From Candidatus Bathyarchaeota archaeon (GTDB lineage Archaea > Thermoproteota > Bathyarchaeia > Hecatellales > Hecatellaceae): a stretch of DNA of 64,000 nucleotides. The DNA lies in the NCBI GenBank assembly GCA_052246995.1, contig JBQPWD010000007.1, positions 1 to 64,000 of the forward strand, given 5' to 3'. A program made the translations under genes and the position numbers. The notes beneath the pieces are model-generated. The model was not told the DNA's origin. It saw only the letters and a program-made list of their open reading frames with translations, and did no database searches. Shown one piece after another: positions 40,813-46,188 of this stretch. The stretch's first letter is position 1. Every line of letters starts with the position of its first letter.

Positions 40813-41265
40813 TTGAGGTTTGTTGAAGTTTTTATTGCATACGGACATGAGGCGGTAAAAGCTACCCATCCAACAACATTAGAGGTGACTAAAGAACGGA
40901 ATTTAACGTCTAAAGGGGATTGTATAGTGGCGGTTGGAGCCTCAAAATCAACAATGGATTTAAGTGGAAACTTTAAAATTTTAGCTAGAAAACCAGATAC
41001 AAAAATTACTTTAAAAATTAGAGTTGGAAAACTTGTAGAAGTTGTTGAAGGTTTTGGAAATCCAAACCTAACTTTAAATCATCCAACAGATATAGTTGCA
41101 CGAACAAGTACTTATACATGCCCACGAACAGTAATGGTTAAAGCTAATAAGGCTGCAGTGAACCTTTCCCGTCAGCTAATTTCAAAACTTCAAAATCCAA
41201 ATACATTAGCAATAATAACGTTAACAGCAGAAAACCCCGCCTTTAAATTTTTAAGCGGGAGCTAG
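40813..41265 (+). CDS. DUF371 family protein
   Basis: GHEAVKATHPTTLEVT, GDCI, ANKAA. Confidence 0.9.
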   Translation: MRFVEVFIAYGHEAVKATHPTTLEVTKERNLTSKGDCIVAVGASKSTMDLSGNFKILARKPDTKITLKIRVGKLVEVVEGFGNPNLTLNHPTDIVARTSTYTCPRTVMVKANKAAVNLSRQLISKLQNPNTLAIITLTAENPAFKFLSGS

Positions 41266-41281
41266 AATTTAATATTCTAGA

Positions 41282-41409
41282 GGGCCCGTAGCTCAGCCAG
41301 GTGGAGCGGCGGACTAGATTAAACTAGGCCGTAGCTCTTAACCCGTTGGTCGAGGGTTCAAAAGGTTAAAGCTGGTAAAGCTTTAACCTTGAAAATCCCT
41401 CCGGGCCCG
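41282..41409 (+). tRNA. tRNA-Lys(CTT) with introns at 30/31 (41313-41333) and 59/60 in the T-loop (41363-41395)
   Basis: Spliced arm GCGGG-CT-CTT-AA-CCCGT; BHB with CGGC/GCCG core; T-loop intron hairpin with TTCA/TGAA core. Confidence 0.9.
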
Positions 41410-41572
41410 TCACTATTTAGAAGTAAACTCTTAAACAGCTGAGTTTTTCCAATCCTATTTAAGGAGATAACAAATTTTTTGTAGCTCTTGCTAAGGTAAG
41501 TTTACACTCTTTTTGACGGGGGACAGTATATCATTCTTGACGGTTTATTATTTTTCCTTCATCTCTATGTCA

Positions 41573-41587
41573 GAAAAGTTTATATAT
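41573..41587 (+). promoter_or_regulatory. BRE-TATA promoter (GAAAAG-TTTATATAT) upstream of the micro-ORF
   Basis: Close match to the archaeal BRE+TATA consensus, ~20 nt before ATG 41605. Confidence 0.6.
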
Positions 41588-41604
41588 CTGGTGAAACTAC
41601 ATTC

Positions 41605-41670
41605 ATGCTCGAGGTAGAGGTAAGGTTGTCTAAGAAGAAGAAAGAAGAGAAAAAGGAAGAAAAGAAGTAA
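41605..41670 (+). CDS. Putative Lys/Glu micropeptide (MLEVEVRLSKKKKEEKKEEKK, or MSKKKKEEKKEEKK from TTG 41626)
   Basis: Promoter, GAGGT SD before TTG, mixed synonymous Lys/Glu codons, T7 tract downstream. Confidence 0.45.
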   Translation: MLEVEVRLSKKKKEEKKEEKK

Positions 41671-41775
41671 AGTCTAGGTTAACCTCCAACAAACTTTACA
41701 TGTCTACCTAATTTTTTTGGAAAATATTCAAACTTTTTGTGTAAAAATTTTGAATAGTAAATTATGAAAACCTTC

Positions 41776-43011
41776 TTAGTTGGCTACTATTCCATAACCT
41801 ATTAAACGCCACTTTCCACCTATCCTCCTACTAAATGCTACTCTTCCACCTCTCTTAGCACAAACAGGTTTTTTGAGCGAAACCTCAAATTCATCTTTTT
41901 TCGCATTTTTTACAACCCCAACGGTTACTGATGTCCCAACATTTAAAACTAAAGTTTCACCATTCCTAACACTTTCAACTTTTGCAAGTTCTGCTGTGCC
42001 TACAGCATATTCAAAAAGTGATACTTTGAGAGTTAAGTCTTTTCTTACTTCTGGTAATTGTCCAGGTTTACCTGCAATATTACCTATAAGACCATCAGCC
42101 TTAGTTAATGCAGGGTCGAGTTTTGAGCCTACACCTACAAGCCCTCCGCAACCAACCTCTTCAACATTTCTACCACCAGCCTGGAGACTTACAATTGACG
42201 TGTAAAGGTTTTCATACTCTTCGCTAGAAGATTTTCTTATTCCAGGCCTTATTTCAATTTCATCTCCAACCCTTAGTTTACCTTCAACAATACTTCCACC
42301 AAGAACTCCTCCAACAATGTTTTCAATCTTTGTTCCAGGCTTGTTTATGTCAAAAGACCTTAAAACATGCATAAATGGAGGTTTTGCAGGGTCACGGGGA
42401 GGTGTAGGAATATACTTTTCTATAGCCTCTATTAACAGGTCAAGGTTTACGTTATGTTGGGCTGAAACAGGTATTATTGGAGCATTTTCAGCTAAAGACC
42501 CTTTCAAAAATTCCCTTATACGTTTATAGTTATCTAAGGCCTGTTCTCTCGTTACAAGGTCTATCTTGTTTTGAACAACAATAATGTTCTTCACACCCAA
42601 AATTTCTAAGGCTAGTAAATGCTCTCTTGTTTGTGGTTGAGGTACAGGTTCGTCAGCAGCAATAACAAGGATAGCTCCATCCATAACAGCTGCACCTGAA
42701 AGCATTGTTGTCATCAATATTTCATGCCCAGGACAGTCAACAAAGCTTACAGTTCTAAGATAGACTGTTTTTGAACTACAGTTTGGGCAGGTAGGAGATG
42801 TTGAGTAACACGTAGGTGGAGAACACACAGGACACTTGTAAAATGATGCGTCAGCATAACCAATCCTTATGGTGATACCTCTTTTAAGCTCTTCAGAATG
42901 TCTTGCAGCCCAAACACCTGTTAAACCTTGAATAAGGGTTGTTTTACCATGGTCAACATGACCTGCAGTACCAATATTTACGCATGGTTGGGATGGATGA
43001 ACTTTTGACAA
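41776..43011 (-). CDS. eif2g: Translation initiation factor aIF-2 gamma
   Basis: GHVDHGKTT, RGITIRIGYA, zinc ribbon, DCPGHE, WRLIGYG. Confidence 0.97.
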   Translation of the reverse strand: MSKVHPSQPCVNIGTAGHVDHGKTTLIQGLTGVWAARHSEELKRGITIRIGYADASFYKCPVCSPPTCYSTSPTCPNCSSKTVYLRTVSFVDCPGHEILMTTMLSGAAVMDGAILVIAADEPVPQPQTREHLLALEILGVKNIIVVQNKIDLVTREQALDNYKRIREFLKGSLAENAPIIPVSAQHNVNLDLLIEAIEKYIPTPPRDPAKPPFMHVLRSFDINKPGTKIENIVGGVLGGSIVEGKLRVGDEIEIRPGIRKSSSEEYENLYTSIVSLQAGGRNVEEVGCGGLVGVGSKLDPALTKADGLIGNIAGKPGQLPEVRKDLTLKVSLFEYAVGTAELAKVESVRNGETLVLNVGTSVTVGVVKNAKKDEFEVSLKKPVCAKRGGRVAFSRRIGGKWRLIGYGIVAN

Positions 43012-45192: not shown

Positions 45193-46188
45193 TTATCTCC
45201 AAGGTATCGGCACATCATCAAGCCTCCATCTAGGTTTAACAAAGCTTTTTTCAATGTCAACTTTAACTCCACATTTTAAGGCTAAAACCCCAACCCAAGC
45301 TATTTGGGCACCGCAATCACCACTAAACTCTTTAGGCACAGTATAAAATTTTGCCTTATGTTCATCGGCAACCGTCTTAAGCATTGATTGAAGTCTTCTA
45401 TTGGCGGCCACTCCTCCAGCTAGCAGAAGTTCATCTTTTTCAAGAAAAGCTAAAACTCTTTCAGCAGTCTCCGTTAAGGCTGTAAACGCAACTTCTTGAA
45501 GAGAGAAGCTTAAATCTTCCCTACGATATCGGCCTTCCTTAAACTTGTTTAAGGCTGCTGTTAAAAGACCGGAGTAGGATACGTTGTTACCTTTAACAGT
45601 TAAAGGTAAGTCTATAAAGGTTTTACCTTTTTCGGCATCAGCCTCAACTAACGGTCCAGCGGGAGATGGAAAACCTACATTTCTACCGTAGGTATCAAAC
45701 AAGTTTCCAAGAGTTATATCCTCAGTTTCACCAAAAATTCTCCATCTTCCAGCCATAAAAGCTGTTAAACATGTATGACCTCCTGAAACAAGAACAACAA
45801 GCGGATCTTTTGCACCCGTGGTAAGAATTGCAAGCTCAATATGACCTATAGCATGGTGAACAGGTATTAAGGGGATGTTAAGGTGGGATGCTAAAGCTCT
45901 TGCGGCAGTTGCTCCTGTTCTTAAGCATGGACCTAAACCTGGCCCTTGAGAAAAAGCTACTGCGGCTAAATCTTTAAGCTTAACATTGGCTTTTTTAACA
46001 GCTTCACGTATTATTTTAGAGGCTACTGCTGAGTGATGTTGAGCACTTTCTCGCGGATGAATACCTTTACCGGGCGGAGGCTGATACATACTTTTCTCGT
46101 TTGAAATTATTTTGCCATCAAAAGATACTACACTAACCCCGTAAGTGTGGGCTGTACTTTCAATACCTAAGCAAAACTTTTTTGGCAA
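45193..46188 (-). CDS. kae1: KEOPS t6A transferase Kae1
   Basis: GIESTAHT, GPGLGPCL, HAIGH, VSGGHT. Confidence 0.95.
   Translation of the reverse strand: MPKKFCLGIESTAHTYGVSVVSFDGKIISNEKSMYQPPPGKGIHPRESAQHHSAVASKIIREAVKKANVKLKDLAAVAFSQGPGLGPCLRTGATAARALASHLNIPLIPVHHAIGHIELAILTTGAKDPLVVLVSGGHTCLTAFMAGRWRIFGETEDITLGNLFDTYGRNVGFPSPAGPLVEADAEKGKTFIDLPLTVKGNNVSYSGLLTAALNKFKEGRYRREDLSFSLQEVAFTALTETAERVLAFLEKDELLLAGGVAANRRLQSMLKTVADEHKAKFYTVPKEFSGDCGAQIAWVGVLALKCGVKVDIEKSFVKPRWRLDDVPIPWR

Follow-up and report, generated by a model that had tools for sequence, protein, structure and literature searches.

Whether a short, promoter-led unit between a tRNA-Lys gene and the gene for translation factor aIF2-gamma in a Bathyarchaeota genome is a gene, or spacer DNA that resembles one, was the question of this study. 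The unit lies on contig C7 of Candidatus Bathyarchaeota archaeon (GCA_052246995.1, contig JBQPWD010000007.1; host genome of 1.53 Mb in 17 contigs, 36.5% G+C). The window is the whole 64,000-nt stretch of this contig that was analysed. An initial annotation had described positions 41573–41720 as a self-contained transcription unit for a Lys/Glu micropeptide inside a fold-back RNA. The unit is read here as a young, species-specific mini-gene that is probably transcribed; this reading is tentative and was given somewhat less than an even chance. Transcription, translation, gating and a role for the peptide were all inferred from the sequence.

In the proposed mechanism, a consensus promoter made of a transcription factor B recognition element and a TATA box (BRE/TATA; 41574–41586) would start transcription near 41611. 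RNA polymerase would stop at a run of seven T residues (T7; 41712–41718), giving an RNA of about 100–108 nt. This RNA would carry a micro-open reading frame (ORF) that is led by a Shine-Dalgarno (SD) motif, starts with TTG and encodes the peptide MSKKKKEEKKEEKK. The ends of the RNA would pair in an interrupted stem of 15 bp, with the second SD motif and the start codon buried and the purine coding tract looped out. Because the stem buries these two signals, translation would need it to be opened by heat or by the ribosome. According to the folding models, the stem could thus gate translation by temperature, and it may also protect the ends of the short RNA.

The anatomy of promoter, SD motif, ORF and terminator claimed for a self-contained unit held in the present analysis, and the promoter was its strongest part. 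The BRE/TATA sequence was found where the initial annotation had placed it (Table 1). Its 12-mer AAAAGTTTATAT occurred at nine genomic sites, eight of them intergenic, and these included the promoter of tRNA-Glu(UUC) and those of two genes with a clear SD motif. Promoters of the type AAAAN-TTTAWAT were common to many upstream regions of the 44 tRNA genes (ARAGORN, introns allowed). When ORFs of at least 100 aa were set apart, the strict motif AAAANTTTAWAW had 83 sites within them and 75 in the remaining 222 kb, a density 5.3 times higher in intergenic DNA than in ORFs. The unit's promoter was its only match, on either strand, in the spacer 41414–41775. Judged from its sequence, the promoter is slightly more likely than not to be active. 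Another copy of the 12-mer, on the minus strand of contig C2 near 50615, was followed by about 70 nt ending in T6 and holding no ORF; this site is a possible small RNA gene.

Archaeal transcription usually starts about 26–27 nt past the centre of the TATA box. The start of the unit would most likely be G41611, after C41610. The ORF listing contained an in-frame ATG upstream, at 41605, which would yield a peptide of 21 aa. Counted from the first T of the TATA box, this ATG comes only 26 nt later, so the transcript probably does not include it. A leaderless 21-aa form was considered less likely, the ATG being too near the TATA box, and TTG was therefore taken as the start codon. The GAGGT motif named as SD in the initial annotation was present twice, at 41611–41615 and 41617–41621. 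In 1183 long ORFs, SD-type 4-mers concentrated at −15 to −9. The GAGG motifs of the unit start at −15 and −9 from TTG, and the genome-wide GAGG peak was at −14 to −11 (21 cases at −15 and 18 at −9, against 47 at the peak). TTG began 212 of the 511 SD-led long ORFs and ATG began 240, as found with a crude caller; TTG is thus unusually frequent as a start codon, and such a start is ordinary in this genome. TTG also opens the aIF2-gamma, DUF371 and molybdopterin oxidoreductase genes of the window in the ORF listing. The T7 tract proposed as terminator was likewise found in place; runs of at least seven T occurred at 0.38 per kb per strand genome-wide.

The reported composition of the micro-ORF was also correct: TTG (41626–41628) and TCT were followed by 12 codons that are all AAR or GAR (41632–41667) and by TAA (41668–41670). 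The peptide has eight Lys, four Glu and one hydrophobic residue; 12 of its 14 residues are charged, its net charge is +4 and it has no hydrophobic segment. Since blocks of Lys and Glu alternate, it would suit a short charged helix, and it is our guess that the peptide is such a helix or a binder of nucleic acid or the ribosome. The claim of a micropeptide stood in part. SD-led TTG starts are common and analogous micro-ORFs in relatives support it indirectly, but no homologue was found. Given a transcript, translation was favoured about twice as strongly as a purely RNA role, because SD-led TTG starts are routine here and the look-alikes in relatives behave as coding.

Micro-ORFs of this kind are rare in the genome. 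A scan for micro-ORFs with Lys/Glu runs of at least seven residues gave four ORFs, two of them outside long ORFs. SD-led ORFs with at least 45% Lys or Arg filled four rows at three loci, including the unit and an ORF on contig C5, and these two were the only intergenic SD-led Lys/Glu micro-ORFs in 1.53 Mb. The string KKEEKKEEKK of the peptide also occurs on the minus strand of contig C7 at 79717–79759, with a 95% DNA match over 20 nt (E 0.11). That sequence presumably encodes the hinge of the ribosomal stalk protein aP1, judging from its tail. The aP1 sequence continues into a conserved ...EEEEALAGLSALFG tail that the micro-ORF lacks, and the match was taken as shared low complexity, not descent.

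The pairing between leader and trailer was examined by folding and duplex prediction. The fold-back of the initial annotation proved real in silico: 41612–41618 paired with 41703–41709, and 41620–41627 with 41692–41699, the latter with one G–U pair. The AACCTCC described as an alternative partner for the SD motif was present at 41681–41687. The leader–trailer duplex had a predicted energy of −17.8 kcal/mol, which was equalled by 0.25% of 2000 shuffles and by 0.43% of 28,712 intergenic windows with matching geometry from the genome. With a wider trailer, 2.6% of 500 shuffles equalled it. The stem spans from about the predicted transcription start to 3 nt before the T7 tract. When the transcript 41611–41716 was folded at different temperatures, both helices were predicted from 37 to 70 °C, with mean pair probabilities for the lower and upper helix of 0.98 and 0.83 at 37 °C and of 0.92 and 0.56 at 70 °C. 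The stem weakened from 37 to 80 °C, with a predicted free energy of −16 kcal/mol at 37 °C and of about −2 kcal/mol at 70 °C. A kink-turn or H/ACA reading of the 1x3 internal loop was rejected by eye, since the loop has no tandem G–A pairs.

Further Lys-rich micro-ORFs were found in this genome and in its relatives. The contig C5 micro-ORF MAKKKEVKKKEEKKKEEKSKCAK (45617–45688, minus strand) encodes 23 aa, has a consensus promoter and is followed by T7 41 nt past its stop. It lies between genes with Terminase_6N/6C (PF03237, PF17289) and Phage_portal (PF04860, below the cut-off) domains, and a Phage_capsid_2 (PF19821) gene is nearby (locus L140, contig C5 40000–50000). Because terminase, portal and capsid genes are present, this region looks like a provirus. 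The sister species has a syntenic Lys-rich ORF of 21 aa, MAKKKTKKASKAGKKSGKKKK (L142:1582–1644), and in an IMG/VR relative of the terminase (59% identity) the corresponding place is taken by another small basic ORF.

Among 145 loci (596 kb) from relatives, one further micro-ORF with a Lys run was found, in G012. Its DNA was detected in four of the five genomes of genus g5 and in none of the 20 other genomes searched. All four g5 loci have the promoter GCATAAATTTTTTAAAC, an SD motif and a T run of at least five (T6–T7) 44–59 nt past the stop; a 3' hairpin was also read from the sequences of these loci. In G012, G005 and G008 the micro-gene lies between a gene of 107–117 aa and pdxS, and long ORFs at the G010 locus show the upstream neighbour only. 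Of 60 positions compared between G012 and G010, 7 differ, and five of the seven differences, counted from stop to stop, are synonymous third-position changes (p about 0.045). On this comparison, the g5 micro-gene shows a coding-type substitution pattern. On contig C6 of the present genome, the 117-aa gene and pdxS are adjacent without a micro-ORF, so the g5 micro-gene is a lineage-specific occupant of its site. This turnover mirrors the absence of the unit from the sister species.

The pattern GGAG-N3-10-ATGGCNAARAARAAR gave 22 hits in 20 of 201 genomes of the class, compared with three for the reversed control. Seven of the 22 were Lys-rich ORFs of at most 24 aa. The rest were ordinary proteins, and from their N-termini we take these to include a 54-aa zinc-ribbon protein and argininosuccinate-synthase-like genes. 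The shorter pattern ATGKCNAARAARAAR was not enriched in five genomes (10 hits, 13 for the reversed control); from its hits only single loci were taken up, among them the ORF in G003. Lys-rich micro-ORFs were present in G002, G003 and G024, and the G003 ORF MAKKKSGKKGKKGKKK has a promoter, GAGGT and a T run. Across seven loci, the TATA box was counted about 40–47 nt before the start, the ORF had 14–23 codons and the T run stood 34–59 nt past the stop. For a wider set of loci the ranges were 12–23 codons and, where an oligo-T run was found, 19–59 nt; at the G024 locus no such run was seen within 110 nt. Pfam and NCBIfam gave no family for three analogous peptides of 20–23 aa.

A class of micro-genes was defined here by BRE/TATA, an SD motif, an ORF of 12–23 codons opening with M-A/S-K-K-K, and oligo-T; membership means likeness of architecture, not demonstrated homology. 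The unit has all of these features. By its architecture and its M-S-K-K-K-K N-terminus, it would belong, loosely, to a class of stand-alone Lys-rich micro-genes. Like the unit, the other Bathyarchaeia micro-genes have BRE/TATA about 40–47 nt upstream, an SD-like motif, the M-A/S-K-K-K N-terminus and a lineage-specific site. They are rich in Lys, Thr, Ala, Ser and Gly and strongly basic, whereas the unit and the contig C5 ORF mix Lys with Glu. The unit further differs in its TTG start, and it alone has a significant leader–trailer stem. Frames were conserved between species at the g5 and contig C5 loci. Homology between the unit and the family-wide micro-genes cannot be shown at such length and complexity. 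The family may carry unannotated autonomous genes for Lys-rich micro-proteins, gained at intergenic sites that differ between lineages, one of them within a provirus head module, with the unit as a newborn Lys/Glu-type member gated by end pairing; this wider proposal is rather unlikely as a whole.

Several results weighed against the unit being a gene. It was present only in this genome: a DNA search of 40 relatives detected no relative of it, the best matches being at most 42 nt long with E values of 0.0018 or worse, which is chance level, and a short-word BLAST search of its own genome gave no paralogue of the spacer. Since it occurs in one species only, the unit is at best a very young gene, and it may have no function. 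A block of about 207 nt that contains the whole unit had no counterpart in three sister-species assemblies (L039, L040 and L119). From the last 13 bases of the tRNA to the first bases of aIF2-gamma there are 391 nt here, compared with 175–187 nt in these assemblies, and the flanks of the block align (TTTGAC on the left; TCAAACT...AATAGTAAA...TTAGTT on the right). G001 is the sister species (aIF2-gamma 88% identical), to which the metagenome contigs L039 and L040 and the genome record L119 also belong; its gene order is likewise DUF371, tRNA-Lys, aIF2-gamma. In a third genus (G007), only about 30 nt lie between tRNA and aIF2-gamma. Gain in this species and loss in the sister species both fit and cannot be told apart on these alignments. 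Scans of metagenomes and genome collections with the DUF371 protein returned the sister species, at 84–85% identity, and distant Bathyarchaeia only, with no strain-level relative. Conservation of the unit's frame between species was not found, there being no counterpart in the sister species. The 14-mer GCTAAGGTAAGTTT (41491–41504) is kept in both species (L040, L119) in a spacer that has otherwise diverged.

The signals of the unit were then weighed against chance. Of the 75 intergenic strict promoter sites, 34 were orphans, meaning sites without an ORF of at least 60 aa or a tRNA within 25–200 nt, and the derived orphan density of about 0.077 per kb per strand was near the chance estimate for AT-rich spacer. 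Among the 33 orphan sites listed, only the unit combined a T run of at least six with a closed, SD-led ORF that was 10 codons or longer. The marginal rates (4/33 and 7/33) gave about 0.85 full sets expected by chance, so the feature set alone is not beyond chance; the stem and the pure Lys/Glu composition add to it, though both were noticed post hoc. Both GAGG motifs stand 3 nt away from the −12 optimum, and the open frame is not coding evidence because purine-only tracts are open in every frame. The whole 116-nt RNA folded no better than shuffles (minimum free energy −16.2 against a shuffle mean of −19.8; z +1.22, and z +0.33 for the minus strand), 180 of 200 shuffles folding equally well or better. 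Rfam gave two tRNAs only at gathering level in the 64 kb. The fold-back was not shared by the analogous loci: at six of them, 11–73% of shuffles paired as well, compared with 2.6% here. CCTCC-like motifs were readable in the 3' parts of several loci, their leader pairing was not above shuffles, and a fold-back of SD and anti-SD was rejected as a family feature. Similarity between the C7 and C5 cassettes was within the shuffle range (local alignment score 56, best of 200 shuffles 62) and not separable from low complexity, and homology between them was not demonstrable. The absence from the sister species, the short spacer of G007, the orphan sites, the number of full sets expected, the whole-RNA fold and the lack of an Rfam match would suit neutral spacer DNA, in which a recent 207-nt gain here or a loss in the sister species left a low-complexity purine tract between imperfect inverted repeats. 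The AT-rich promoter-like and T-run motifs would then be chance occurrences, and the DNA would be silent or its transcript of no consequence. Such a chance origin is a serious possibility, though below an even chance. It also accounts for a weakly repeat-like tract, an SD pair that is a hexamer tandem, and the use of AAG against the genome's preference, as in a slipped AAG/GAA tract. It explains less well why the promoter 12-mer serves tRNA-Glu and two SD-led genes and why the stem joins the predicted 5' end to the terminator, at a strength so seldom reached in genomic windows. Moreover, with about 85% of the genome taken up by ORFs of 100 aa or more, an extra spacer between convergent genes calls for explanation, and elsewhere in the family analogous Lys-rich micro-genes do exist and are conserved.

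If the unit is transcribed, it might instead be a non-coding small RNA (sRNA) of about 105 nt, in which the closing stem displays a mostly purine loop of about 70 nt to a protein or a pyrimidine-rich RNA and the ORF is incidental. This is improbable. It shares the evidence of promoter and terminator with the mini-gene, a terminal stem is typical of stable small RNAs (probability at least 0.8 up to 50 °C), and an SD motif and start codon within the stem disfavour translation. The 5' arm is an exact 16-nt copy of contig C3 188173–188188 (plus strand), which covers codons 5–10 of a 391-aa ORF starting at 188159; this mRNA is thus a conceivable pairing partner of the 3' arm. However, the 16-mer match has an E value of about 0.1 and the arm is already paired within the RNA at equal energy; this gene start was treated as a chance match and rejected as a target. 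The sRNA also has neither an Rfam family nor conservation; no structure is predicted for its loop, and coding is the better explanation of the analogous loci in relatives. The unit is not a box C/D sRNA: neither RTGATGA nor TGATG occurs on either strand of the spacer, and CTGA, the D-box tetramer, occurs outside the unit only. Much the least probable is a remnant or passenger of a mobile element, such as a miniature inverted-repeat transposable element (MITE) or a moron-like cassette of viral origin whose source was the provirus-like region of contig C5. The presence here and absence from the sister species, the adjoining tRNA gene, the imperfect inverted repeats around the tract and the similar Lys/Glu cassette between terminase and portal genes would fit it. 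On the other hand, the unit is single-copy in the genome, no target-site duplication was seen at the junctions, the promoter lies outside the inverted repeats, and a scan of viral contigs for exact matches of 32 nt was empty; the resemblance to the contig C5 cassette at the DNA level is, as stated, that of shuffled sequence.

The unit was compared with known systems. Judging by literature listings and the opening parts of abstracts, stand-alone small ORF (sORF) genes and small-protein-encoding RNAs (spRNAs) of archaea have been catalogued in Methanosarcina mazei and Haloferax volcanii (PMC11456600, PMC10117724, bioRxiv 10.1101/2025.10.28.685009). As presented there, they resemble the unit in being transcribed independently, as short RNAs from a promoter of their own to a terminator of their own, with an ORF of at most a few tens of codons that gene callers leave unannotated; the unit has no sequence relation to them, encodes 14 aa of almost pure Lys/Glu, occurs in one species and is known from sequence alone. 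The same listings and abstract openings described no Lys/Glu micropeptide and no small-RNA study of Bathyarchaeia. The only Rfam hit overlapping the unit was mir-5391, on the minus strand, with 13.9 bits against a gathering score of 99.3 bits (E 7.8).

The initial annotation had also likened the unit to type I toxin mRNAs and to RNA thermometers. Type I toxin mRNAs such as hok/Sok and tisB encode hydrophobic membrane toxins, have an antisense RNA and fold back from 5' to 3' end. End-to-end pairing that hides the SD motif and start of a tiny ORF is common to them and the unit. The analogy fails on the peptide, in which 12 of 14 residues are charged and no hydrophobic segment exists. The minus strand of 41414–41775 has no BRE/TATA of strict or relaxed form, in a scan that would miss weaker promoters. 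Known RNA thermometers (ROSE, fourU) are local hairpins in the 5' untranslated regions of bacterial mRNAs. They too pair the SD motif and start in a stem that is predicted to weaken with heat, but the unit would take the pairing strand from the 3' end of its own short RNA, and the host comes from hot springs. Phage morons are cassettes of promoter, ORF and terminator inserted between genes. Like them, the unit is an autonomous cassette in one lineage that is absent from the same place in a sister, and the look-alike cassette on contig C5 is inside a provirus-like head-gene module; unlike them, the unit has a chromosomal site flanked by a tRNA gene and the gene of a translation factor, and it showed no sign of transfer. 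For the ribosomal protein eL41 (PF05162, a profile of 25 positions), a six-frame search of the genome gave no match at E of at most 10, in a weak test whose controls also fell under the cut-off.

Expression of the unit would make it a clear natural example of a minimal archaeal gene, spanning about 145 bp with promoter and terminator included and observed shortly after it arose, and the sister species would represent the state before it. ORFs of 12–23 codons fall below the usual length limits of gene calling. The conserved pdxS-adjacent example suggests that tiny polycationic peptides are real and have been overlooked in the proteomes of Bathyarchaeia, with binding of nucleic acid or the ribosome in thermophiles as candidate roles. 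The wider class of Lys-rich micro-genes is a more interesting lead than the unit itself. If the unit is not expressed, it would indicate that promoter, SD motif, ORF and terminator can co-occur by chance about once per genome of 36.5% G+C.

Table 1. Positions of the unit, its parts and neighbouring or comparable features (window coordinates unless a locus is named).
Feature	Position	Strand	Basis or remark
BRE/TATA-type archaeal promoter GAAAAGTTTATATAT	41573–41587	+	TATA from 41579
Predicted transcription start	41609–41612	+	usual archaeal TATA-to-start distance
Two SD-like GAGGT motifs	41611–41621	+	part of GAGGTA tandem, 2.8 copies (TRF)
5' stem arm	41612–41627	+	centroid and duplex prediction; covers second SD motif and first two bases of start codon
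Micro-ORF, TTG to TAA, 14 aa MSKKKKEEKKEEKK	41626–41670	+	ORF scans
Purine-only tract, 36 nt, 12 Lys/Glu codons	41632–41667	+	run scan
Anti-SD-like AACCTCC	41681–41687	+	in 3' untranslated part
3' stem arm, 1x3 internal loop	41692–41709	+	duplex prediction
T7 tract, oligo-T terminator	41712–41718	+	sequence
Extra block of about 207 nt containing the whole unit	41520–41726		alignment with sister species
DUF371 gene	40813–41265	+	upstream of tRNA-Lys
tRNA-Lys(CUU) gene, two introns	41282–41409	+	upstream neighbour of unit
aIF2-gamma gene	41776–43011	−	convergent downstream neighbour; ORF listing
Micro-genes of genus g5	L145:1481–1537; L151:233–289 (−); L152:1497–1556 (−); L153:850–891		MA[KR]KK... 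ORF, 14–20 aa

In a ranking of all 41 runs of 20 nt or more that consist of purines or pyrimidines only, the purine tract tied for third longest. Tandem Repeats Finder (TRF) found it weakly repeat-like (AAG x 12, 72% matches, score 33 with a usual threshold of 50), and a clean trinucleotide-repeat origin was weakly supported. AAG makes up six of the eight Lys codons of the micro-ORF, compared with 32% genome-wide (binomial p about 0.016), an excess for which a slipped AAG/GAA tract is as good an explanation as any. About 200 nt upstream of the micro-ORF is the gene for a tRNA that reads AAG only, which may be a coincidence.

The unit lies inside a spacer of 366 nt (41410–41775) between convergent genes. 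The region was present in nine public runs from four studies, mostly labelled as hot-spring metagenomes, and some of the runs contained 20–31% of its sequence words. The gene downstream was named aIF2-gamma by reading its translation, which we take to be that product, and a relative of this ORF was detected in 39 of 41 genomes; its own T5 is on the minus strand at 41743–41747. Four T runs of five or six separate the tRNA from the unit's promoter, so the unit is more than a tRNA trailer. In the raw window, the tRNA-Lys(CUU) gene was missed by both ARAGORN and Rfam. A tRNA-Lys(ctt) of 74 nt was called by ARAGORN once two predicted introns were removed, a non-canonical one in the anticodon stem (41313–41333) and one in the T loop (41362–41394). 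No second tRNA-Lys(CUU) was among the 44 tRNAs of the ARAGORN genome listing with introns allowed. In the G007 copy of this tRNA gene, a third insert was apparent in the D loop when the sequence was read.

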